Shown here piece by piece: positions 3,168-61,649 of a stretch of DNA of 64,000 nucleotides; the first letter of the stretch is position 1, and each line of letters opens with the position of its first letter. A program made the translations under genes and the position numbers. The DNA is from Parcubacteria group bacterium (GTDB lineage Bacteria > Patescibacteriota > Minisyncoccia > Moranbacterales > UBA9337), in assembly GCA_041662245.1 (NCBI GenBank), contig JBAZSW010000004.1, positions 75,454-139,453 of the forward strand, read 5' to 3'. Below the pieces are notes generated by a model. It saw only the letters and a list, made by a program, of their open reading frames with translations. It had not been told where the DNA came from and made no database searches.

Positions 3168-3545
3168 TCAAACGCCTATTAGTTTTTTAACTCTATTTAC
3201 AATATCTCTCATTCCCCACTCGGCTTTTATTAAATAATCATTGCAACCTAATTCTTTGGCTTCCATGAATTTATCCATATCACCATAATTGGTGAGAATC
3301 ATTACTCTCAATTTTTTACCTTTTTCATCATTCTTCAATGATTTAAGCATCTCCAAGCCATCCATTACAGGCATAGCGATGTCTAGCAAAATCATATCAG
3401 GCAATTCTTTAAGCGCCAAATGCAACCCAATTTCACCATTGGGGGCAATTGTTACGTCAAAACCCTCTCTCTCAAATTTATCTTTCGAAGCATTAGCTAA
3501 CGGAGCCTCGTCTTCCACAACTAATATTTTTTGTTTTGGTTTCAT
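3168..3545 (-). CDS. stand-alone response regulator receiver domain protein (CheY-like)
   Basis: ILVVEDE, DMILLDIAMPVMDGLEML, conserved K near the C-terminus; 125 aa with no output domain. Confidence 0.85.
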   Translation of the reverse strand: MKPKQKILVVEDEAPLANASKDKFEREGFDVTIAPNGEIGLHLALKELPDMILLDIAMPVMDGLEMLKSLKNDEKGKKLRVMILTNYGDMDKFMEAKELGCNDYLIKAEWGMRDIVNRVKKLIGV

Positions 3546-3620: not shown

Positions 3621-3992
3621 TTATATTAAACTTTTTACTTTTTCAACAATATCAGCCATTCCCCAATCAGCTTTAACCAAATAATCATTAGCTCCTAAGT
3701 CTTTAGCCTCCATAAATTTATCCATATCACCGTAATTAGTCAAAATTATTACTTTTAAATCTTTGCCTTTTTCATCTTCCTTTAACAACTTCAGCATTTG
3801 CAAACCATCCATTACAGGCATAGCAATATCTAGCAAAATCATATCGGGCAATTCTCTCAAGGATGACTCTAATCCAACTTGTCCATTTTCAGCGATTAAC
3901 ACTTCAAAGCCTTCCTTCTCAAATTTACTCTTCAAAGCTTTAGCCAATGAAATCTCGTCTTCCACAACTAATATTTTTTTCTTTTGTTTCAT
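3621..3992 (-). CDS. stand-alone response regulator receiver domain protein, tandem paralog of 3168..3545
   Basis: about 70% identical to the neighbouring receiver; same acidic pocket and DIAMPVMDG motif. Confidence 0.85.
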   Translation of the reverse strand: MKQKKKILVVEDEISLAKALKSKFEKEGFEVLIAENGQVGLESSLRELPDMILLDIAMPVMDGLQMLKLLKEDEKGKDLKVIILTNYGDMDKFMEAKDLGANDYLVKADWGMADIVEKVKSLI

Positions 3993-4006
3993 ATTTTTTA
4001 ATGAGA

Positions 4007-6346
4007 TTAATTATTTTCGCTTCCTTCTTGCTCTAATTTTATTGATAATAATCTTGATACCCCATCGTCTCCCATTGTTGCTCCATAAAGATAAGAGGCT
4101 TGACGCATAGTTTCTCGATTGTGCGTAATTGCCACAAATTGAGTGCGAGATGATAAACTTTTTAAAATTTTACTAAACCTTCGAGAATTAGCCTCATCCA
4201 AAGCCGCTTCCACTTCATCTAACATAGAAAAAGGCGGCGGATTATAAGAAATAATTGCAAAAAGCAAGGCTAATGAAGTAAGTGAACGTTCTCCGCCTGA
4301 AAGCATAGACAAATTGGAAATTTTCTTTCCAGGGGGACAAGCCACAATATCTACGCCTACTTCATCTTTATTATCATCTTCCAATTCTTCAATTTCTGCT
4401 TCTATCTTGTCTTCTTTCTCTACATCTAAACCATCTCCCTCTATCTGCTTGGTTCTCACTATTTTTTTCTTTTTTATTTTTACCAAACTAGCTTTTCCGC
4501 CACCAAAAATTATTTTAAAGTATTTAGAAAATTCGTCATTAATTTTTCCGAAAGCCTCAGCGAAAACCACATCGATTTTCTTATCCATTTCTTTAGCTAT
4601 TTCTAAAAGGGAAACAATTGCATTTTCTAAATCTTTGGATTCTTGTTGCAACGTTTCATAACGTTTGTTAGTTTCTTCATATTCTTCGATAATCAATGGA
4701 TCAATTCCACCTATTTGTTCCATCTGAACTCTCAATCGAGAAATTTTTTGTTCCGTATCATAGCGATCAATCTTTTCTCCATCAAATTTAATTTCACGAA
4801 TATCCACATTTAGATTATTCTTTGCTTCCATTATTAAATCTTCTTCTCGCACTTCAATTCTTGCTAGGGAAACTTTAGCATCATTAAATTTATCCTTAGC
4901 CGTATCTATCTTTCTTTGACTTTCTCTTAATTTTTCTTCCGCCGTAAAAAATTCCTCGCGAGCCTTAACGTCTTTTTCTACTTCTTTTCGGATTTCTGTA
5001 TTTATTTGAACAATTTTTTCTCTAGCAATTTGAATTTCTTTTCTAAGCTTTCCGATATAATCATCCATTTGAGCTAATTCTTTGTTGCCTTTTTTCTCGG
5101 CTTCAATTTGTTCATGAGTTTTTTTCCCTTCCACTTTTCCTTTATCAATATCCCCTCGGAGAATTATAATATTTTTTTCAATTTTCAAAATAAACTCTTT
5201 AACTTCCGCCAATTCTTCTAGCGTCTTAATTTTTCCAATTCTTTCACTTAGTTCTCTTTGAAAGTTATGGATATTCTCCAATTCTTCTTGAATATACTTT
5301 TTATCTACCAATATCTCTTGAATAATTCCATGCTGTCTTATTCTATCTTTTAAAATTTCCATCTTTCCCTCAGTCATCATTAGTTCTTTTTCAGAAATAT
5401 TTATTACTTTATAAATTTTATCTCTCTCAAATTTCAGTTCGTCCTGTCTTTTATTTTGTCTCATTTTTTGAGATTCACTCTCCACAAAATCATTAAGTTT
5501 ATCAACCTCTCGTTGAATCAATTGCACTTCTCTTCCCAGCTCTTCTTTTTGTCGAAAGGATTGCTCCCGCTCCGTCTGAAAAGAGTGCCACAAAAAAGCG
5601 AAATATTTTTCTTGAATTTCTCTAAGCTTACCCTTTATTTCAGCTCCTTTCTGAGCTTTATCAGCTTGTCTTTTTAAAATTTTTAAATGCGGCTCAATCT
5701 CCCCCAAAAGAGCGCTTACTTGCAAAAGGTTTTTGCTGGTGGCATCTAATTTTTTTAAAGCTCTTTCCTTCTTGATTTGATATTGTTTTACTCCCGCCGC
5801 ATCTTCTAAGATAGCTCTTCTTTCACTCACAGAAGCATTGAGCACAGCATCGCTCATTCCTTGATTGACTACACTATAACTATCCTTTCCCACTCCTGCT
5901 TTAGCTAGGATATCTGTTATATCAGTCAATCTCACTTTAGAACCATTAATTAAATATTCACTCTCTCCGCTTCTATAAATTTTTCTACGAATAATTACTT
6001 CGGTAAAATCTAGGGGAATTTTTTTGTCTGAATTATCTAAATGCAGAGATACGGAAGCATAATTTAATTTTCCTTTGTTACCACTTCCGGCGAAAATAAC
6101 ATCTTCTGATTTTTTCCCTCGCAAATTTTTCATAGATTGTTCGCCCATTACCCAGCGAATTGCATCTGCGATATTTGATTTTCCACTCCCATTGGGTCCC
6201 ACGATAGCAGTAATTCCCATTTTCCTTTTTTCGCCACTACCAACACTACCCCTAGCTTCATCAACTGAATCTGAAGGCATAAAATCTATAACTGTCTTAT
6301 TGGCAAAAGATTTAAAACCGGCTATTTCTAATTTTTTTAAATACAT
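4007..6346 (-). CDS. smc: SMC-family chromosome condensation ATPase, unusually short (779 aa), no recognisable hinge
   Basis: N-terminal FKSFA..ITAIVGPNGSGKSNIADAIRWVMGEQS; C-terminal LSGGERSLTSLALLFAI and D-loop LDEVEAALDE; coiled-coil middle. Confidence 0.8.
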   Translation of the reverse strand: MYLKKLEIAGFKSFANKTVIDFMPSDSVDEARGSVGSGEKRKMGITAIVGPNGSGKSNIADAIRWVMGEQSMKNLRGKKSEDVIFAGSGNKGKLNYASVSLHLDNSDKKIPLDFTEVIIRRKIYRSGESEYLINGSKVRLTDITDILAKAGVGKDSYSVVNQGMSDAVLNASVSERRAILEDAAGVKQYQIKKERALKKLDATSKNLLQVSALLGEIEPHLKILKRQADKAQKGAEIKGKLREIQEKYFAFLWHSFQTEREQSFRQKEELGREVQLIQREVDKLNDFVESESQKMRQNKRQDELKFERDKIYKVINISEKELMMTEGKMEILKDRIRQHGIIQEILVDKKYIQEELENIHNFQRELSERIGKIKTLEELAEVKEFILKIEKNIIILRGDIDKGKVEGKKTHEQIEAEKKGNKELAQMDDYIGKLRKEIQIAREKIVQINTEIRKEVEKDVKAREEFFTAEEKLRESQRKIDTAKDKFNDAKVSLARIEVREEDLIMEAKNNLNVDIREIKFDGEKIDRYDTEQKISRLRVQMEQIGGIDPLIIEEYEETNKRYETLQQESKDLENAIVSLLEIAKEMDKKIDVVFAEAFGKINDEFSKYFKIIFGGGKASLVKIKKKKIVRTKQIEGDGLDVEKEDKIEAEIEELEDDNKDEVGVDIVACPPGKKISNLSMLSGGERSLTSLALLFAIISYNPPPFSMLDEVEAALDEANSRRFSKILKSLSSRTQFVAITHNRETMRQASYLYGATMGDDGVSRLLSIKLEQEGSENN

Positions 6347-6624
6347 AAATATTCATTAAGCATAAAACATACAACAACTAGCATAAAGCAAAATGCCTCA
6401 TGTCCCACCCATCATTTCATATACCCGATTATACTATAAATCTATAATTTTAGGAAATACCCTTAAAAAGGGATAACCCTTAAAACTATTTATCCTTTTC
6501 TTTAAAATCATTCATCAAATCAATCCTCAATATGTAGCTTAATAGTTGTTATTTTAAACCGCTTAATTATTTGTTTTATAGAAATTTAATTTAAGCGATT
6601 AAAGGCGAAAAATAATGAATTTCA

Positions 6625-6670
6625 TTAAAAAAATAGTAAACCCCACTCATAACAACTATTATGGTGGGGC
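6625..6670 (-). terminator. rho-independent terminator downstream of 6684..7187
   Basis: CCCCAC...GTGGGG stem and loop; on the minus strand it is followed by TTTACTATTTTTTT. Confidence 0.6.
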
Positions 6671-6683
6671 GTCAGATTAAATT

Positions 6684-7187
6684 TCATTTCGGAATCAGCT
6701 TCGTATGAAGCTCTGCTAAATCTTCCAAAAATTCTCCAGCAATTTTTATTGATTGTTTGTCGTTTTGAAAAATTATAATCTTGCTAAGAACTTCCAATAT
6801 CTCGCTACTGGTCAAGTTCAGTCTTTCTAAATTTGCGTGGAAAATCAATGCCTTCAAGTTAGCTTCAATTTCAAATCCATTGTACTCAACGCCAGCGTCT
6901 CTAAACTTGACAATGCACAAACGAATATCGTTTCCAGCTTTATCAAGTTCCTTCCAAAGTTCCCTGTTCTCCTGTTTGGACTTACCGATTGCCGACACTA
7001 TCTGCGTACGTATTTCAAACAATTTTGTGAAGATATTTTCTTGTAAATTTTTTATTATTTTTTTTCTTCGCTCATCTCCTTTTTTTGTCATATGGGAAAC
7101 TATAAGTATAATCCCAAAAGCTACAATAATAATAGATAAATAAGCCACAAAAGCTATTATATTGAAATAACTCATATCTTCCTCCAT
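6684..7187 (-). CDS. hypothetical membrane-anchored protein
   Basis: N-terminal hydrophobic helix; no recognisable domain. Confidence 0.4.
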   Translation of the reverse strand: MEEDMSYFNIIAFVAYLSIIIVAFGIILIVSHMTKKGDERRKKIIKNLQENIFTKLFEIRTQIVSAIGKSKQENRELWKELDKAGNDIRLCIVKFRDAGVEYNGFEIEANLKALIFHANLERLNLTSSEILEVLSKIIIFQNDKQSIKIAGEFLEDLAELHTKLIPK

Positions 7188-7368
7188 CTGAGAATATTAA
7201 GAACTAAATATCTTTTTCTGTATTATATAGAACAATAATCTAGGAAATAGTCTTTGTCAATCAAAAAAGCATATACTGAAATATGCTTTTTTGAAAAAAT
7301 TCTATTTTAAATCTAAAATATTGAAAAATTGAGTATTGATTAAATATCGGTTATTGGATATTTTTAAC

Positions 7369-8151: not shown

Positions 8152-8667
8152 TTAATTGTTTTCTTCGATAATTTTCTTGTCATTCTCCAATTTCCTAGCC
8201 TTTTCCTCTTTGGCCTCTTTTTTCTTCTTATCATCATCCTTGAGTGGCTCACCCATCTCTCGATAAATTGTCCCCAGCACTCCATTTATAAATTTAGCTG
8301 AGTTGGGTCCACCAAAGGTTTTAGCTAGCTCAATCGCTTCGTTAATTGCTACTTTAGGGGGAACATTTTCATAATTTCCATAAAGGAGTTCAAATATTCC
8401 AATTCTCAAAATATTTCTATCTACAATAGTAATTTGGCTAAGTGGCCATTCTGGAGCACACTGCTCAATAAGCTCATCAATATCTCCCTGATTTTTCAAA
8501 GTTCCTTCAACCAAAGCCAAAACAAGATCCGTTTCTTCTATACCAATTGCCAATTCTTTAATATTTTTATCAACAATATTCAAGACATCGTCTTTATTTG
8601 AACCATTAAAATCCCACTCAAATAAAGATTGCATCGCTATTGATCTCTGAAGGTGCCTATTTGCCAT
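8152..8667 (-). CDS. nusB: transcription antitermination factor NusB with lysine-rich C-terminal tail
   Basis: NusB-like helical fold pattern ([17 protein letters not shown] ... [11 protein letters not shown]); C-terminal [10 protein letters not shown] tail. Confidence 0.85.
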
Positions 8668-8711
8668 TTTTATTAATTAATCAAAGAGTCCTAAGCTCCT
8701 GAGAAACTTAA

Positions 8712-8927
8712 TTATTTTTTATTTTTAGACTTTTTTTCGGATATTTTTACAACCTCTCTCCCTTTATAAAAACCACACTTTGGACAAGCTCGATGAGGAA
8801 GAATTTTTTCTTCACAGTTACTACATTTAGTAGATTGGACTTTAACAATGTTTTTTATCTTAATAACTTGACCGGCGCGTCTTCTTCCTTTTCTGGCGGT
8901 ATTATGTCGTTGTTTTGGTACTGGCAT
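8712..8927 (-). CDS. rpmF: 50S ribosomal protein L32
   Basis: MPVPKQRHNTARKGRRRAG and zinc ribbon CSNC...CPKCG. Confidence 0.85.
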   Translation of the reverse strand: MPVPKQRHNTARKGRRRAGQVIKIKNIVKVQSTKCSNCEEKILPHRACPKCGFYKGREVVKISEKKSKNKK

Positions 8928-9019
8928 ATATTTGAATAACTATATTTCTATCGCTATTTGGATTAAACTTTTACTGTTTAAATTTATCATTACTTTCTAA
9001 TTTTGGCAAGAGCTGAAAT

Positions 9020-9068
9020 TAATTTTAAATTTTGAATTTTAAATTTCAAATGAATGATTAAATTAATT
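9020..9068 (-). repeat. dispersed AT-rich repeat copy (minus orientation), left flank of the 9146..9595 cassette
   Basis: reverse complement reads TTTAGTCATT...AATCATTCATTTGAAATTTAAAATTCAAAATTTAAAA; matches the copy at 9721-9765. Confidence 0.6.
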
Positions 9069-9145
9069 AATGACTAAAACACAAACACAATAAATGAAAG
9101 ACAGAAACTAAAAAATAGTCCTGCCCCAAATACCGCTCCACATGT

Positions 9146-9595
9146 TTATCGCCAATTTCCGTATTGAATGCAATAACTCTTGGCCACAGGATTAACTTCT
9201 TGATGGATTTGCATCGAAATTGGATCACTCATAGTTATGCTATAAGCTGGTTGAACCGCTTTATTATAGTCACCAACAGCCCTTTGAAGGTCTAGACATG
9301 CGTCTCTCAATGTAACCGTTACAATCCCCGTTTCTCTAGAATTTTCTCCTTTACGAACTGTCCAGCTTCTGATTTCCGATATCTCGTTTCCAAGTTTAAT
9401 TACAAATTGAGTTTCTCTTTCTACTCTATCTGTCAAATGGCTAAATTCATTTAAACTTTGGTTTGCGCTCCAAGAAGAATATTCTTCACGAGCATACATA
9501 AAAACAAAAGAAAAAATCAGAAACACAATAGGAGTTAAAAGAGCTGAAACTGCCATATTTCCGAATACATCTCGATATCGATATTGCATTGTCAT
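9146..9595 (-). CDS. hypothetical membrane-anchored protein, GC-elevated, flanked by inverted repeat copies
   Basis: one N-terminal TM; no recognisable domain; GC visibly higher than neighbours. Confidence 0.45.
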   Translation of the reverse strand: MTMQYRYRDVFGNMAVSALLTPIVFLIFSFVFMYAREEYSSWSANQSLNEFSHLTDRVERETQFVIKLGNEISEIRSWTVRKGENSRETGIVTVTLRDACLDLQRAVGDYNKAVQPAYSITMSDPISMQIHQEVNPVAKSYCIQYGNWR

Positions 9596-9720
9596 AATAT
9601 CTCACCTCACGATTTTTGGTTTATAAGAAAGAGCTTTTAAATAATAACAATCATTCAATTAGGACCAACCTAACATTTTAAAATATTTTTGTAAAGATAT
9701 TCATGCTTTAAAAATTATAT

Positions 9721-9765
9721 CATTTAGTCATTCATTTGAAATTCCAAATTTTAAATTTGAAATTC
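9721..9765 (+). repeat. dispersed AT-rich repeat copy (plus orientation), right flank of the cassette; abuts the rnhB stop
   Basis: CATTTAGTCATTCATTTGAAATTCCAAATTTTAAATTTGAAATTC. Confidence 0.6.
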
Positions 9766-9766
9766 T

Positions 9767-10552
9767 TTAAGCTTTCCATCTATCATTAATCGCATTTCTA
9801 ACAGGAGCAAATGTTTTGCGGTGAATTTTACAAGGACCATTTTGTTTTAATGCTTCAATATGAATTTTAGTGCCATAACCCTTGTGTTTGGCAAATTGAT
9901 AGGCGGGATATTCTTTATCAAACTTATTCATTATCCTATCTCGCGTAACTTTGGCAATTATAGAAGCAGCTGAGATTGATTTTACTAATTTATCACCGCT
10001 AATTATTGCTTTTTGCTCTAGCGAAAAATTAGGAATCATTTTGTCCCCATCTACTAAAATTATTATTTTTTTCTGCTCTTTAATTTGAGATTTTAAATCT
10101 CCAATTGCTTTTTTCATTGCTAGAAATGTCGCCTCCAAAACATTTATTCTATCTACCGTTTCGTGATTACAAATCCCCACTCCCACATAAAAATTTTCCA
10201 TAATAAATCCAAAAACCTCCTCTCGTCTTTTCTCGCTCAATTTTTTAGAATCTCTGATTAAATCCCACATCCTTTCCTCTCCCCCTCTCCGAGGGGGAGA
10301 TGTCCGAAGGACAGAGGGGGTGTTTCCTATTTTTTTATCATTTGAATTTGATTTGAAATTTGAAATTTGAAATTTTGAATTCCGAACCACTACCGCCGCT
10401 GCCACTACTGGTCCGGCCAGCGGTCCCCTGCCTGCCTCGTCCACACCCACCACAAAATCCCAACCTTTACCAAAAAGATCTTTTTCTAATTCAAACCTGT
10501 CAATCGCAACTGACGGGTTCAAAGTAGATTCTAATTTTACTTTATTTTTCAT
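9767..10552 (-). CDS. rnhB: ribonuclease HII carrying an in-frame insertion of about 40 aa
   Basis: VVGVDEAGRGPLAGPVVAAAVVV catalytic motif and DSKKLSEKRREE; 261 aa vs about 200 typical; extra segment RNSKFQISNFKSNSNDKKIGNTPSVLRTSPPRRGGEERMW lies between these two motifs. Confidence 0.9.
   Translation of the reverse strand: MKNKVKLESTLNPSVAIDRFELEKDLFGKGWDFVVGVDEAGRGPLAGPVVAAAVVVRNSKFQISNFKSNSNDKKIGNTPSVLRTSPPRRGGEERMWDLIRDSKKLSEKRREEVFGFIMENFYVGVGICNHETVDRINVLEATFLAMKKAIGDLKSQIKEQKKIIILVDGDKMIPNFSLEQKAIISGDKLVKSISAASIIAKVTRDRIMNKFDKEYPAYQFAKHKGYGTKIHIEALKQNGPCKIHRKTFAPVRNAINDRWKA
10265..10384 (-). repeat. about 120-nt composite element inserted in-frame in rnhB: GC-rich hairpins plus a TTGAAAT tandem-repeat module
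   Basis: coding-strand hairpins GTCC-TTCG-GGAC and CTCCCCCTC-GGA-GAGGGGGAG; TTGAAAT x4; absent from E. coli and B. subtilis RNase HII at this position. Confidence 0.7.
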
Positions 10553-10783
10553 ATATTTTTAATCATATTAGCACTTTAGCATATTAGTATAAAAACAATA
10601 CAAATGTTCAATAACCAATATTCAATATAAAGATCCTAAGTCTTAAATTCCTAGCTTCCTATTATTCCTAAATTCTTTAAGTATTGCTTTTTCCACATTT
10701 TAATTATACACTTTTTAAACAACTTACAAAGTTGTAATAAAAAAAATAGTACCTCTTACCTTCAATAATATAGGAGAAACAAG

Positions 10784-11527
10784 ATGAAAAAAAGACCAAT
10801 TGGCTTTTCGACTGGAACATTCTTTAAATTCCTAGACCCCATAGTGAAAGAAGCTGTTTATTTCGTGCAAGATTTTGGATGCGACACCATTGAGATTAAC
10901 TGGCATCGCAAAGAATCTCAGCCTCCTCATAAAAATCTAGGCACATTAATTGACAAGCAATTTCAATACGTATCCCTACATTTACCCGTTAATATGTCTG
11001 ACGGTAGTGGTATTTTTAAGGCTAATGAAATTTTAAATCGAGCTTATAGATTTTTTTCTCAGTGTCACGCTTTCAGTCATGCGGTGATTCATCCAAATCT
11101 AATAGTTGATTGGGATGAATTTTATCAGATGTTTAACCACAATCTTGCATTGCCCTTGGCTATTGAAAATATGGACGATCGAAAAAAGTCCTTTAGAGAT
11201 TTACCGTCGCTGTTGGAATTTTTTAAAAAATATCCAGCTATTAGCCTAGTATTTGATGTTAATCATTGGATTATTAATGGCAACAGCGTTTCATCCATTT
11301 CCAAAACTCTCGAAGCGCTTTTTTTGGCTGGAATTAAATTGGTTGGAATTCATCTTAGCGGAGCTGGATTTCATGAACCACTTTTTAGGACTCCCCGTGC
11401 AACGGAAATTGTAAAGTCACTAAGTATACTTCCGTCAAACATTCCCATTATCATCGAAAGTATTTTTGAAAACACAAATGAGCCCGCTCAGGAATTGGCT
11501 TTTATCAAAAAATATCTAGAAATTTAA
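10784..11527 (+). CDS. xylose-isomerase-like TIM-barrel protein (sugar phosphate isomerase/epimerase family), tentative
   Basis: pattern of FSTGTF..., IEINWH, SLHLP, VIHPN, LAIENMDD, FDVNHW; no stronger match. Confidence 0.45.
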   Translation: MKKRPIGFSTGTFFKFLDPIVKEAVYFVQDFGCDTIEINWHRKESQPPHKNLGTLIDKQFQYVSLHLPVNMSDGSGIFKANEILNRAYRFFSQCHAFSHAVIHPNLIVDWDEFYQMFNHNLALPLAIENMDDRKKSFRDLPSLLEFFKKYPAISLVFDVNHWIINGNSVSSISKTLEALFLAGIKLVGIHLSGAGFHEPLFRTPRATEIVKSLSILPSNIPIIIESIFENTNEPAQELAFIKKYLEI

Positions 11528-11550
11528 TATTCACTAGGAGGGACACTCCC

Positions 11551-11853
11551 ATGCAGAAATATTATATCGCATTAATAATATCAAAAGAGCCCATTAATCT
11601 TCCTGAGGATTTATTAAAAGGTAAGGGCATTAGACATTTAATAGCCGAAGAATTTGAGGTAGGAGAAGATATCATATCCGACCCAACCAACGAAGACTAT
11701 TGGCAAATCAAAAAATCTGCCCCAAAGCATTGTGGCGGGATAAATCAACTGCACTATGGAAATGGATTAACAATTTCAGTGGCCATATTAAATTGGCTCA
11801 AAAATCTTTGTGCTTCCACTGCCTATAATCCGTTCTACTTTCAAAAAAGTTGA
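11551..11853 (+). CDS. hypothetical protein
   Basis: strong SD AGGAGGGA upstream; no recognisable domain. Confidence 0.35.
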   Translation: MQKYYIALIISKEPINLPEDLLKGKGIRHLIAEEFEVGEDIISDPTNEDYWQIKKSAPKHCGGINQLHYGNGLTISVAILNWLKNLCASTAYNPFYFQKS

Positions 11854-11880
11854 GTAAATATTATTCTTTTTTCTAAAAAA

Positions 11881-11922
11881 GTGGGCAAAAGACGAAGTCT
11901 TTTGCCCACTTATTTTATTTAT
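11881..11922 (+). terminator. rho-independent terminator
   Basis: perfect 13-bp stem GTGGGCAAAAGAC / GTCTTTTGCCCAC, loop GAA, then TTATTTTATTTAT. Confidence 0.75.
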
Positions 11923-12260
11923 TACCAACTCTTCAAAAAACAAACTCACCGTCTTCTCACGGCCATGAAAAGACTGTGAATTTAATTTTCTAAATTAATA
12001 TATGATCAAATTTGTATTTATTTGTAATTTCGTATGAGTTCGCCCGCCTGCAACGCTGTAGCACTGCGAACAGGTATTTTGTAGAGAACACCCCTTTTCA
12101 ATTCAAGTATTCCATGCTACAATAATTTTGTTAAATAAAAGTTAATTCTAACTTGCAAAAGCCACAGAGCAATCGGGCGTATGAAGATAGAATAAATAAA
12201 TGTTTACGTTTTATAAAAAATTATATCTCAAACCCTGCTTTTTTAAAGTTGAGGTTTTTA

Positions 12261-12295
12261 ATTTTTCACAAAAATAAAATATTTTTGTGAAAAAT
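12261..12295. promoter_or_regulatory. perfect palindrome, 15-bp arms and 5-nt spacer, about 235 bp upstream of dnaE; candidate operator
   Basis: ATTTTTCACAAAAAT-AAAAT-ATTTTTGTGAAAAAT. Confidence 0.5.
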
Positions 12296-12450
12296 TATCC
12301 CGCCCAAAACCTTAACTAACTAATCGAGCTGGTAGAAAATAAGCCGAAGGCGATTTAGAGAACAGCCTATCTGCAAACTCCGGCTGACCCTGGGTTTTGT
12401 TGCGGGATATTTTTCGCTCTAAATTGCAAGGAATAAACCCCTCCCCAACC

Positions 12451-12493
12451 CCTGCCTACCGGCAGGCAGGCTTCCCTTGCTAAGGGCAAGGGG
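12451..12493 (+). promoter_or_regulatory. two adjacent GC-rich hairpins in the dnaE leader
   Basis: CCTGCC-TACC-GGCAGG and CCCTTGC-TAAG-GGCAAGGG, 36 nt before the dnaE ATG in a 30% GC context. Confidence 0.45.
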
Positions 12494-12528
12494 TCAAGAA
12501 GAATAAAATTATTATAATCAAAAAAATT

Positions 12529-15500
12529 ATGGAAAACGACCCTCAAACAATCAAACCTACTAATAAATTTACTCATCTTCATGTTCATAGTCACTATTCA
12601 TTACTGGATGGGCTAGCTAAAATTGATGATCTTCTAAAAAGAGCTAAGGAATTAGGCATGGACTCGCTAGCACTGACCGATCACGGAGTGATGTATGGAA
12701 TTGTAGAATTTTTTATTAAAGCCAAAGAAGCAGGCATTAAACCCATTATTGGTTGTGAAATGTATCTTACTCCCGCTAGTCGTACCAGCAAAAATAACAC
12801 CGCTGAAGATAAAACTCGTTATCATTTAACTCTCTTGGTTAAGAATGAAAAAGGCTACAAAAACTTAATGAAATTAGTTTCCGTTGCTCATCTGGAAGGT
12901 TTTTATTATAAACCTCGTATTGATAAAGAAATTTTAGAAAAATACTGCGAAGGATTAATTTGTATGAGTGGTTGTGTCCAAGGAGAAATTCCTCAAACTA
13001 TTATTAAAAAAACATATGAAGAAGCCAAGGAAATAGCTCTTTGGTATGATAAAATTTTTGGTCGAGGAAATTTCTATATGGAGTTGCAACACCATCCAGG
13101 ACAAGCTGATCAAAAGTTTGCTAATGGAGGTATGATTCAAATATCCAAAGAAACTGGCATCCCTGTAGTCGCCACAGGAGATATTCATTATACCAAAGCG
13201 GAAGATGCTGAAACTCAAGACATCCTTCTTTGTATTCAGATGAATAGAAAGGTTCATGAAAAAAACAGACTGAGCTTAATGGACTTTCATCTCTATATGA
13301 AATCACCCGAAGAGATGGAGGAATTTTTTAAAGATGTTCCCAATGCCGTTAGCAACACCCAAGAAATAGTAGCTAAATGTAATTATGATATTCCCTTGGG
13401 AGAAATTCAACTTCCTTATTTTGAAGTACCCAAAGAGTTCGATGATAAAAGCTACTTGAGATATTTGACCCAAAAGGGTCTTGAAGAAAAATTTGGAGAC
13501 AAAATTACTGACAAGCACCGCGAAAGAATGGAATACGAACTTTCCATTATTGAAAAAATGGGATATTCTCCCTACTTTTTAATCGTTCAAGATTTTGTTA
13601 ACTGGGCTAAACAGCAAGGAATCGTGGTGGGTCCCGGAAGAGGAAGCGCAGCAGGAAGCTTCGTTTCTTATTTGGTGGGAATTACCAATCTTGATCCAAT
13701 TAAATATGATTTGCTTTTTGAAAGATTCCTAAATCCCGAAAGAGTTTCGATGCCTGATGTTGATATGGATTTCGCTGATGATAGGCGCGACGAAGTTTTA
13801 GATTATGTGAGAAAAAAATATGGTGATGATCATGTGGCTCAAATTATTACTTTTGGAACAATGGCGGCTCGTGCAGCCATTCGCGATGCAGGACGTGCTT
13901 TGGATTATCCTTATGACTATTGCGATAAAACAGCCAAGATGATTCCTATGTTTTCCACTATCGCCGAAGCATTAGAGGATGTGCCAGAATTTAGTAATTT
14001 TTATAATTCAGATAAAGATGCTAAAAAATTAATTGATAGTGCTAAAAATTTAGAAGGAGTTTGTCGACATGCTTCTATGCATGCTTGTGGAGTAGTAATT
14101 ACCAAAGAGCCTGTTACTAATTATTCTCCCCTTCAAAAAATTATTGGCAAAGAAGATGGAGTAGTAACTCAATATTCTTCTTCAACTAAAAGTAGCTACG
14201 TGGAAAAAATTGGCCTACTCAAAATGGACTTTTTGGGACTAAAAAATTTAACCATCATTCAAAATGCTATCAACATTATTGAAAAAACCAAAGGAGTTAA
14301 AATAAATATTGATGATATCCCTCTAGATGATGAGGCTACTTATAAACTATTGCAAGCTGCTCATACCACAGGAGTATTCCAGTTGGAATCCTCAGGCATG
14401 AAGCGTTATTTAAAACAACTCAAACCCAACAATCTCGAAGATGTAATTGCAATGGTGGCATTATATCGTCCCGGACCAATGGACTGGATTCCTGATTTTA
14501 TTGACAGAAAGCACGGACGAAAAAGGATTGAATACATTCATCCTAAATTGGAACCCATCTTAAATAAAACTTATGGAGTAGCTGTTTATCAAGAACAAGT
14601 GATGCAAATGGCTCAAAGCTTAGCAGGTTATTCCTTAGGGGGTGCTGATATGCTCAGGAAAGCGATGGGTAAAAAAATTCCCGAATTAATTCAGAAAGAA
14701 AAAATTAAATTCATTGATGGAGCTGTACAAAACGGAGTTAACAGAAAAGATGCCGAAAAAATATTTGCCTTTATTGAGCCTTTTGCAGGCTACGGATTTA
14801 ATCGTAGTCATGCCGCTTGTTATGCTCTTGTTGGTTACCAAACGGCTTATCTCAAAGCCCATTATCCAGCGGAATTCATGGCTGCTTTAATGACCTCTGA
14901 CCAAGGCAACATCGAAAGAATCGCTATTGAAGTGGAGGAATCTCAAGATATTGGAATTGCAGTTTTACCACCTAACGTTAATGAAAGTTTTGGGGAATTT
15001 GCCGTAATTAAAAGTGAAAATGACAAAGTAAATATTCGCTTTGGTTTGAAAGCTATTAAAAATGTAGGCCATACTGTGGCTGATGAAATTGTTAAAGAAA
15101 GAAAACGAAATGGAAAATACAAATCCTTGGCCGATTTCTTAGAAAGAGTTATTACAAAAGATTTAAACAAAAAATCTATTGAAGCATTGGCTAAAGTGGG
15201 TGCGTTAGATGATTTAGGGGAAAGAAACCAAATTATCGAAAACATTGAAATTATCTTGAATTTTTCCAAAAGTATTCAAAAAATAAACAATGCCAATCAA
15301 GATAATCTTTTTGGCGCAATGGAAATAAAAACTCCTGCCATCAAATTAGCGCTAACGATTCCCGCTACCAAAAATCAAAGGTTACATTGGGAAAAGGAGC
15401 TTTTAGGATTGTATGTTTCTGATCATCCTATTTCTGAATACAAATATTTTTTTGAAAAAATGACCACTCCAATTTCATCACTAGATAATTCCATGGTTGG

Positions 15501-51526: not shown

Positions 51527-51588
51527 CATTAAGTCATTATTGAATTATAAATTCATTCGAAATTCAAAATTGGAAATTCAAAATTTAA
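51527..51588 (+). repeat. dispersed AT-rich repeat copy
   Basis: CATTAAGTCATT...AAATTCATTCGAAATTCAAAATTGGAAATTCAAAATTT. Confidence 0.6.
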
Positions 51589-58826: not shown

Positions 58827-58830
58827 AAGA

Positions 58831-58976
58831 TTTAATTTTAAATTTGAAATTTAGATTCAAATTCTAATTTATTAATTTTTCAAATATTTAAAATTTATTT
58901 TCTGAATTATTTTTTAACCTTATAATTTTAATCATTAAAAATTCATTTGAAATTCAAAATTTGAAATTTGAAATTT
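58831..58976. repeat. two copies of the dispersed AT-rich repeat (58831-58870 and 58941-58976)
   Basis: AATTCATTTGAAATTCAAAATTTGAAATTTGAAATTT and AAATTTGAAATTTAGATTCAAATTC. Confidence 0.6.
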
Positions 58977-59024
58977 AGATATAAAATTCTATTTTATAAA
59001 CATTACAACTTTAAAAACTATTTC

Positions 59025-61494: not shown

Positions 61495-61497
61495 ACA

Positions 61498-61537
61498 AAA
61501 AAATTTTGAATTTCAAATTTTGAATTTTGATTCAAGT
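61498..61537 (-). repeat. dispersed AT-rich repeat copy (minus orientation)
   Basis: reverse complement GACTTGAATCAAAATTCAAAATTTGAAATTCAAAATTTT. Confidence 0.55.
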
Positions 61538-61600
61538 CTTAATTTTTTAATATTAAAAAAACGCCTTGTTAAAAACTGCTATTTATAAAAAATATTTTCT

Positions 61601-61645
61601 ATCATTATTCCATTGGAAATTCATTCAAAATTTAAAATTTAAATA
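61601..61645 (+). repeat. dispersed AT-rich repeat copy (plus orientation) ending 5 nt before the cysS ATG
   Basis: TCATTATTCCATTGGAAATTCATTCAAAATTTAAAATTTAAAT. Confidence 0.55.
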
Positions 61646-61649
61646 AGTT

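Follow-up and report, generated by a model that had tools for sequence, protein, structure and literature searches.

In a 64,000-nucleotide stretch of a Parcubacteria group bacterium genome (contig JBAZSW010000004.1, positions 75,454 to 139,453; the whole stretch is called the window here), the spacer between rnhB (RNase HII) and rpmF (L32) holds ORF149, a 149-amino-acid (aa) open reading frame (ORF) bracketed by two inverted copies, or arms, of an AT-rich repeat. A preliminary description of this DNA took the arrangement for a composite cassette or one mobilised by a miniature inverted-repeat transposable element (MITE), inserted into a conserved neighbourhood. We find instead that ORF149 is probably, though far from certainly, a lineage-specific accessory gene in a hypervariable intergenic slot whose turnover is driven by recombination and not by a transposon, a reading that overlaps in part with both purely vertical descent and MITE or composite mobilisation. 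Three observations are firm: the slot is variable, the gene is native in character, and the arms are also present in slots that hold no gene.

By its CorA and RNase HII relatives the window belongs to Candidatus Moranbacteria/Moraniibacteriota (the lineages compared are labelled L001, L003, etc.), and in this group rnhB is followed by rpmF-nusB-rnc-smc in conserved order; the rnhB-rpmF adjacency was absent at seven other Patescibacteria loci, so the junction is conserved only within Moranbacteria. What lies between these fixed neighbours varies. The spacer is 197-255 nucleotides (nt) long and without a gene in L092, L094-96, L097 and L101 (four lineages), which are the junctions lacking the ORF that the preliminary description had suggested seeking by synteny; it holds ORF149 in the window, L001/2, L003-8 and L009 (four lineages); in L093 it holds two genes, one of 477 aa on the opposite strand and one for a 114-aa signal-peptide (secreted) protein; and it holds a remnant of about 130 nt, the 3' end and terminator of the 114-aa gene, in L103/104. 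In this remnant (L103 4225-4375, and L104, against L093 8735-8875) the last ~18 codons are recognisable up to the stop (GFASTAAKRLLREKEKGE against GFASTMAKKLLKESGQSE), and such decay shows that cargo is lost by deletion in the slot. The slot, a single intergenic spacer of 0.14-2.4 kb, runs from the rnhB end (..GATAGATGG) to CTCTTGCCAA, the rpmF -35 hexamer, where homology to all relatives picks up again; the last 0-3 rnhB codons past ..NDRW differ among lineages in the alignment of relatives. After ORF149, L001 has a G8-domain gene and not rpmF, and the L009 contig stops before the next gene.

Flanks and contents of the slot tell different histories. L003 (occupied) and L094 (empty), both apparently from Rifle aquifer groundwater samples, share 96.5% identity in the 3' part of rnhB (synonymous divergence, dS, 0.19) and 99.4% towards rpmF, while their spacers are not alignable beyond short patches of about 80% identity. 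With flanks this close and spacers this patchy, a simple deletion or insertion between the two was rejected. Further, the rnhB tail is 91.3% identical between the window and L001 and 79.5% between L001 and L009, whereas ORF149 is 76.8% and 85.4% identical in the same pairs; the ORF149 and rnhB trees disagree and, as read from these sequences, the ancestry is mosaic and incongruent. Hence, insertion into a conserved neighbourhood, as proposed in the preliminary description, is borne out by variable occupancy between near-identical flanks, and the empty and occupied spacers, those flanks and the disagreeing trees together support an insertion-type polymorphism.

ORF149 itself has the character of a resident gene. 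Its GC content is 0.364 (0.253 at third codon positions) against 0.365 for rnhB, 0.355 for nusB, 0.352 for rnc and a range of 0.26-0.43 among window genes, so the earlier claim of elevated GC fails: the gene seems GC-rich only against its own flanking spacers (25-28% GC), and both GC and codon composition, which the preliminary description had suggested comparing, are native to the window. Homologues of 147-150 aa fall into four sequence clusters (55-100% identity), with a fifth at 43% in L011, and pairwise ratios of nonsynonymous to synonymous divergence (dN/dS) of 0.22-0.41 indicate purifying selection. The predicted promoter (TTTACA-N17-TAGGTT; Table 1) is kept in the alignment of all five lineages, including L011 with its different genomic context, and was unlisted by the consensus scan because its -10 hexamer fits at just three of six positions. 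Also common to all five lineages are the leader motif (G)YTCTTTYTYATAAAYYA and a GAGGTG Shine-Dalgarno sequence, and the leader, for which the alignment of lineages gave no supported consensus RNA structure, is to all appearances a conserved primary-sequence element. A terminator-like hairpin is kept downstream in L001, L003 and L009; the 91-nt region that contains it folds at -22.1 kcal/mol (z = -4.1 relative to shuffles), and the strict terminator scan did not call it. The L011 homologue lies between tyrS and ftsA (L011 4890-5810), with a 91-aa membrane ORF starting 18 nt after it; it has no arms and keeps the promoter (TTTACA-N17-TAGTAT) and leader (TTCTTTTTTATAAACCAA..GAGGTG) in a spacer otherwise unlike. 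Judged by selection and conserved signals, ORF149 is a true gene, native and self-contained, with its own promoter, leader, coding sequence and terminator.

The inverted repeat copies noticed in the preliminary description stand up to closer analysis. An exact 15-mer, CATTCATTTGAAATT, lies at 9042-9056 on the minus strand and 9729-9743 on the plus strand, TTTAGTCATT lies at 9723-9732 (plus) with its complement at 9069-9078, and the extended arms (9021-9081 and 9704-9764) are 79% complementary over 61 nt. The best inverted local alignment of the two spacers scores 28.5, as against 11.1 +/- 1.6 for dinucleotide-preserving shuffles, 0 of 1000 of which reach the observed score, and a profile search recovers both copies at full length. 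As AAATTT is itself palindromic, a direct-repeat alignment of the arms (34 nt, 82%) exists as well, and their orientation is fixed solely by the non-palindromic tail AAATGAATGA..AATGAYTAAA. Each arm resembles the copies at 51.5, 58.9 and 61.5 kb at least as much as it does the other arm, with scores of 28.5 between the two arms and 29.0 and 27.0 against copies 40-50 kb off. The left arm begins 1 nt past the rnhB stop codon in gene-sense orientation. The right arm, placed after the ORF149 terminator and before the rpmF promoter, is kept after ORF149 in L003, L001 and L009. It stops 8 nt short of the rpmF -35 hexamer (about -45 to -77), with a 5-nt difference in this distance between L003 and the window; alone it is unfolded (z = +0.6).

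Arms occur with other cargo or none. At the start of the gene-less L101 spacer is a copy that matches the window's left arm, CAAATGAATGACTAAATGA included, at 91% identity over 66 nt, and the left arms of L103 (remnant cargo) and L001 (ORF149 cargo) are 97% identical. Inverted arms, one next to the rnhB stop and one next to the rpmF promoter, were found in gene-less L094, L097, L092 and L101 (26-32 nt, 74-88% complementary), and in minimum-energy folds of the gene-less spacers they pair end to end. The L092 pair, followed by a U-rich tail, is a strong terminator-like hairpin (-33.1 kcal/mol, z = -5.8). Convergent pairs of the repeat with no gene between them also lie in the corA-cysS spacer of the window and the rnc-smc spacer of L094.

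Both arms belong to a larger family. In eight aligned copies the element is about 60 nt long and consists of three to five tandem heptads AAATTTY (units AAATTTC, AAATTTG and AAATTTT), AAATGAAT, 8-12 variable bases and AATGAYTAAA; a single copy thus runs from a heptad array to AATGAYTAAA, without terminal inverted repeats, and folds no better than shuffles (z -0.7 to +1.3). A profile search of the window found four full and three to four partial copies, including a weak partial one near 58830. Six to seven of the seven to eight copies are intergenic, where intergenic DNA makes up 14.7% of the window, and gene-sense copies mostly hug stop codons (1 nt past rnhB, 4 nt past corA). The 27-mer of the repeat occurs twice against 0 expected, the 15-mer with at most two mismatches is weakly enriched (4 against 1.7 expected), and copies that did not seed the profile were found in other genomes (E 2e-10 to 7e-8). 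The convergent pair between corA and cysS (61499..61643), an inverted repeat of 21 nt that is 90% complementary, is missing from L098 and L100, which gives filled and empty orthologous sites. At the same slot positions the heptads vary by lineage (TTYAAAA, TTTGACA, CAACTTT, TGCTAAN, TATTGAN). The family had no counterpart in Rfam or in the literature searched, and, going by the copies aligned here, it is a new dispersed heptad-repeat family that would mark gene boundaries genome-wide.

Some further observations concern the repeat. Three to five units of a second flavour of heptad or octad, (A)TGCTAAN, closely precede the rnhB start in the window (10558-10620) and L003 (120-170), and in L092 (640-700) this flavour closely precedes the rpmF promoter. 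In L007 (900-939), of the L003 lineage, the contig ends after the right arm in extra AATTTCA heptads and not in the rpmF promoter; this reflects either a break in the assembly at the repeat or another structural variant. The tail of the repeat contains extended -10-like TGnTAnAAT strings; that it acts as a sigma-70 promoter is a weak idea, which we set aside given that their placement is inconsistent and promoter-like sites are not enriched (seven against 10.4 expected in 8600-10800, one of them in an arm at 9049..9022).

To explain these patterns, we propose that the slot in Moranbacteria would consist of tandem 7-base AT-rich repeats, with one array directly behind the rnhB stop and another, inverted, that ends just short of the rpmF promoter; together they would make the spacer a loose palindrome. 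Self-contained modules (promoter, leader, coding sequence and terminator) for small membrane-anchored or secreted proteins would come and go between the arms, probably through recombination between related lineages via the conserved flanks, illegitimate insertion and deletion at the palindrome centre, or both. The inverted copies would then be arms of the slot and members of the genome-wide family at gene boundaries, and may serve as AT-rich terminator, insulator or promoter-upstream DNA. Several points weigh against this proposal. Arm-pair folds of the AU-rich cases, L094, L097 and the corA-cysS spacer (z -0.5 to -1.5), do not go beyond shuffles, so that a terminator role is indicated for L092 alone, and L093, L098 and L103 have no clear arm pair. 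In all four lineages with ORF149 the right arm is well conserved, and L001 synteny breaks immediately outside it, so the right arm may travel with the cargo. The L003-L094 exchange boundaries coincide with the outer arm ends (rnhB stop, rpmF -35), which is also expected of a mobile unit with the arms as part of it. Since dS is saturated save for the window-L001 and L003-L094 pairs, gain and loss cannot be polarised for each event, and the sample comprises about 10 lineages, mostly on short contigs.

Mobilisation would take the form of a MITE pair, a composite cassette or a gene-capturing MITE, inserted between rnhB and rpmF by a transposase encoded elsewhere. It would account for the inverted arms that bracket ORF149, the different occupancy of close relatives, the L003/L094 divergent block running from the rnhB stop to the rpmF -35 with both arms inside, the gene-less convergent pairs elsewhere (which resemble cargo-less MITEs), the presence or absence of the repeat at orthologous sites and the L001 synteny break just outside the right arm. 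We nonetheless consider it unlikely, and the cassette of the preliminary description is unsupported. The target-site duplication that was to be looked for outside the repeat copies is absent: the outer flanks, ending in GCTTAAAG on one side and beginning with TCAGCTCTTGCC on the other, show no adjacent direct repeat, and both occur in empty alleles too. No transposase or integrase domain was found in the 46 window ORFs scanned (64 kb of genome), single copies have unlike ends in place of terminal inverted repeats, and the arms, at about 60 nt and non-coding, are not those of a composite transposon. The left arm is already present in the empty L101 spacer, the arms are as close to distant copies as to each other, the L011 homologue lacks them, an arm-cargo-arm unit was never seen at a second locus, and the motif has no exact match in viral contigs. 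About as unlikely by our estimate is a reading in which an undescribed cassette-exchange system of Moranbacteria or the candidate phyla radiation (CPR) would use the convergent arms as its recombination sites. In this joint reading, self-contained small surface-protein genes would be swapped by a recombinase, or by breakage and repair directed by a hairpin or cruciform, and rnhB-rpmF, corA-cysS and rnc-smc would be among the slots, with the gene-less arm pairs as empty docking sites.

Purely vertical descent, which we regard as possible and would not choose, holds that the order rnhB, arm, ORF149, arm, rpmF is ancestral and that repeated deletions removed the gene while the arms were kept as cis elements; as part of the same tentative reading, the arm next to rnhB would serve as its terminator or insulator, and the arm next to rpmF as an upstream element of the rpmF promoter. 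Consistent with this, ORF149 always adjoins rnhB in the four AT-rich lineages, its dS between the window and L001 (0.78) is like that of rnhB (0.64), the decaying L103/104 remnant means that deletion happens in the slot, the right arm ends so close to the rpmF -35, and the L092 pair is a strong terminator-like hairpin. Against it, the ORF149 and rnhB-tail trees are incongruent, L011 has the gene at tyrS/ftsA, and ORF149 occurs in about five sequence clusters as compared with 23 other rnhB clusters at at least 68% identity. A recent simple deletion separating L003 from L094 would have left remnants about 96-99% identical, not unalignable spacers, and the 5-nt shift in distance to the -35 together with the lineage-varying heptads argues against a sequence-specific upstream element. 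Chance similarity of low-complexity AT-rich spacers, combined with a spurious open frame, would gain from the 25-28% GC of the spacers, from heptad arrays that match in either orientation (AAATTT being self-complementary) and from the weak enrichment of the 15-mer. It is refuted by the shuffle test, by the purifying selection on ORF149 homologues and by the non-seed copies in other genomes, and the excess of the 27-mer and the specific, non-repetitive tail common to the family speak against it as well. Recombination-driven turnover of an accessory gene in a variable slot therefore remains the reading we prefer.

Table 1. Features of the rnhB-rpmF slot and full-length or partial copies of the heptad repeat (window coordinates)
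Feature	Position	Strand	Basis and remarks
rnhB (RNase HII)	9767..10552	-	Pfam PF01351, 1e-33; left-hand edge of slot
Partial repeat copy C	10348..10383	-	In frame in rnhB loop, encodes KFQISNFKSNSN; nhmmer E=5e-4
Left arm, repeat copy B	9705..9766	-	Heptads AAATTTN x4 plus tail CAAATGAATGACTAAATGA; nhmmer E=1.2e-12, seed copy
ORF149 promoter (predicted)	9668..9696	-	TTTACA (9696..9691), 17-nt spacer, TAGGTT (9673..9668)
ORF149 5' leader AGCTCTTTCTTATAAACCAAAAATCG and Shine-Dalgarno GAGGTGAG	9601..9635	-	Alignments; Shine-Dalgarno 5 nt before ATG at 9595
ORF149	9146..9595	-	149 aa; small bitopic membrane-protein gene (predicted)
Terminator-like GC hairpin GGGGCAGGACTA..TAGTTTCTGTC, then T-rich tract	9097..9127	-	Folding and conservation
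Right arm, repeat copy A	9018..9080	+	Inverted relative to B; nhmmer E=9.9e-11, seed copy
rpmF promoter (predicted)	8981..9009	-	TTGCCA-N17-TAAATT with TG; promoter scan; right-hand slot edge
rpmF (L32)	8712..8927	-	Pfam and synteny; opens conserved rpmF-nusB-rnc block
Full-length repeat copy D	51528..51587	-	Downstream of fructose-bisphosphate aldolase gene
Full-length repeat copy G	58922..58978	-	Downstream of L,D-transpeptidase gene; orthologous copy in L100
Convergent repeat pair	61499-61530, 61603-61643	+, -	corA-cysS spacer, no gene inside; nhmmer E=2e-4, 5e-6, non-seed

On the minus strand the order of genes is rnhB, ORF149, rpmF, nusB, rnc, a 167-aa ORF and smc. An Rfam scan of the whole window gave no family at gathering score, with two chance-level matches (E ~0.1) in 8600-12600.

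The product of ORF149, membrane-anchored according to the preliminary description, carries one hydrophobic segment, at residues 14-32 (mean Kyte-Doolittle hydropathy 2.4) after Arg residues, which by the positive-inside rule suggests an N-in/C-out, surface-exposed topology. It has two invariant Cys and is otherwise predicted helical, in keeping with an all-helical AlphaFold2 model (mean predicted local distance difference test score, pLDDT, 69); its sequence characters are those of a bitopic helical membrane protein of a tiny family. The profile search suggested earlier, run against the PDB, gave no match, nor did Pfam, PHROGs or PADLOC, and Foldseek against the PDB gave none below E=0.2. A profile search of 1.84 billion representative proteins found the ORF149 family itself alone, and the gene was absent from 185,579 species-representative genomes. 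A single weak profile match to P0006 (E=7e-5), a Gram-positive surface protein of repetitive sequence, was discarded as spurious.

The repeat also enters coding sequence. In rnhB, the loop from GRGPLAGP to DSKKLS measures 25 aa in L103, 30 in L093, 37 in L097 and 52 in the window, and spans 52-58 aa across the window, L003, L094 and L012. Its repeat copy is missing in L103, short in L093 and longer, by exactly 21 nt (three heptads), in L097, and such steps of 21 nt point to slippage. In the window (10270-10385, minus strand) the heptad copy encoding KFQISNFKSNSN is accompanied by two GC-rich hairpins (..TSPPRRGGE..); inserts elsewhere lie at L003 300-420 and L097 1837-1894 and also in L094, L012 and L016, and all are in frame. 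Comparison with typical RNase HII proteins suggests that the insert sits in a surface loop. For annotation, the rnhB insert should be taken for neither a frameshift nor an assembly error, and ORF149 is a real gene to keep.

GC-rich hairpins of a different kind lie nearby. The element CGCCTGCAACGYTGTAGCA(..CTGCGRRCAGG) occurs in three different places in three related genomes, namely in the intergenic DNA upstream of dnaE in the window (12045-12063), in the rnhB loop of L003 (326-344) and in the rnc-smc spacer of L094 (8592-8610), the last two copies being 97% identical; by its distribution it is a second small mobile repeat family, as these alignments have it. Upstream of dnaE, 12297-12408 folds on the plus strand into a hairpin of about 112 nt closed by ATCCCGC/GCGGGAT (-37.8 kcal/mol, z = -3.8), which had no Rfam match at E <=1, and more GC hairpins follow at 12440-12500.

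Two other spacers vary in their contents. Between corA and cysS (61495-61649) the window has the convergent repeat pair alone, L098 (CorA 91%) has a 94-aa 23S_rRNA_IVP-family gene between repeat arrays of different sequence (3910-4369), and in L099 and L100 (L100 3910-3935) corA is followed by a different, 470-aa gene; from these alignments it looks like a second variable slot. The rnc-smc spacer (6347-7368) contains, in the window, ORF167 (6684-7187), a 167-aa membrane ORF of no family with its own promoter and terminator; relatives have an NYN-domain gene (L092 spacer, 2400-2999) or no gene (L093, L094), the L094 spacer (8570-8996) holding its convergent repeat pair. ORF167 in the window has no repeat arms, so arms are not universal to variable slots. 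Elsewhere in the window, tandem response-regulator receiver genes (3168-3545 and 3621-3992) form a 300-nt direct repeat, 75% identical at a spacing of 447 nt, and adjoin the gene for a PAS/HAMP histidine kinase (907-2964); only a single copy is seen in L092 and L094.

CPR bacteria have tiny genomes and, to our knowledge, variation of their cell-surface repertoire is poorly known. The rnhB-rpmF locus offers a small, clean example of how genes for membrane or secreted proteins are gained, swapped and decay among closely related groundwater populations, and it exposes an undescribed AT-rich 7-base repeat family that sits at the boundaries of genes and that RNase HII tolerates in frame. Should the repeats prove to direct the exchange, this would be a new mobility mechanism; if not, the locus would be an ordinary accessory-gene hotspot.

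Flexible genomic islets, or hotspots, are sites where strain-variable accessory genes occupy a fixed position among core genes and are exchanged by homologous recombination of the flanks. The rnhB-rpmF slot resembles them in its fixed position, alternative cargoes (here small membrane or secreted proteins), empty state, decayed remnant, mosaic flank identity and incongruent trees; unlike them, it is one spacer of 0.14-2.4 kb lined by inverted heptad arms, and no tRNA, integrase or phage genes are involved. ORF149 is also like an integron cassette in being a small, strain-variable single-gene unit with an imperfect repeat 3' of the gene. It is unlike one in that the window scan gave no integrase, there is no attI site or cassette array, the gene has its own promoter and terminator, and the right arm, unlike an attC site, is unstructured (z = +0.6).

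For the repeat itself, the short tandemly repeated repetitive (STRR) sequences of heterocystous cyanobacteria are reportedly tandem heptanucleotides, dispersed and mainly intergenic. They share with our family the tandem 7-nt units, the dispersed and mainly intergenic placement, and unit sequences that differ between families; the heptad repeat differs in its phylum, its unit (AAATTTY), its arrays of three to five units joined to a conserved non-repetitive tail, and its occurrence as inverted pairs lining a spacer and in frame in a coding region. Repetitive extragenic palindromes and bacterial interspersed mosaic elements are short, GC-rich, imperfect palindromes of 20-40 nt that form a stable hairpin. 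The heptad repeat, in contrast, is AT-rich, not self-complementary as a unit and no better folded than shuffles; that class better fits the separate GC-rich hairpin elements (window 12045, 10279-10299).

The repeat is like MITEs such as the Neisseria Correia element in its length of about 60 nt and its many copies, mostly intergenic or at gene boundaries and occasionally in genes, with presence or absence among relatives. Some MITEs carry promoters, the Correia element among them (PMC10969869), and the extended -10-like strings in the heptad repeat tail recall these; the heptad repeat, however, has no terminal inverted repeats or target-site duplication, no related transposase was seen in the window, and its body is a 7-base array of variable length. 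Rickettsia palindromic elements insert in frame into protein-coding genes (PMC10969869), much as the heptad repeat and GC-rich hairpins lie in frame in the RNase HII loop with presence and length varying among relatives, although the heptad repeat is not palindromic as a unit, is much shorter than those elements (about 150 bp) and is so far found in one host gene. By analogy, the repeat family would work most like the STRR sequences, and like small dispersed repeats or MITEs.

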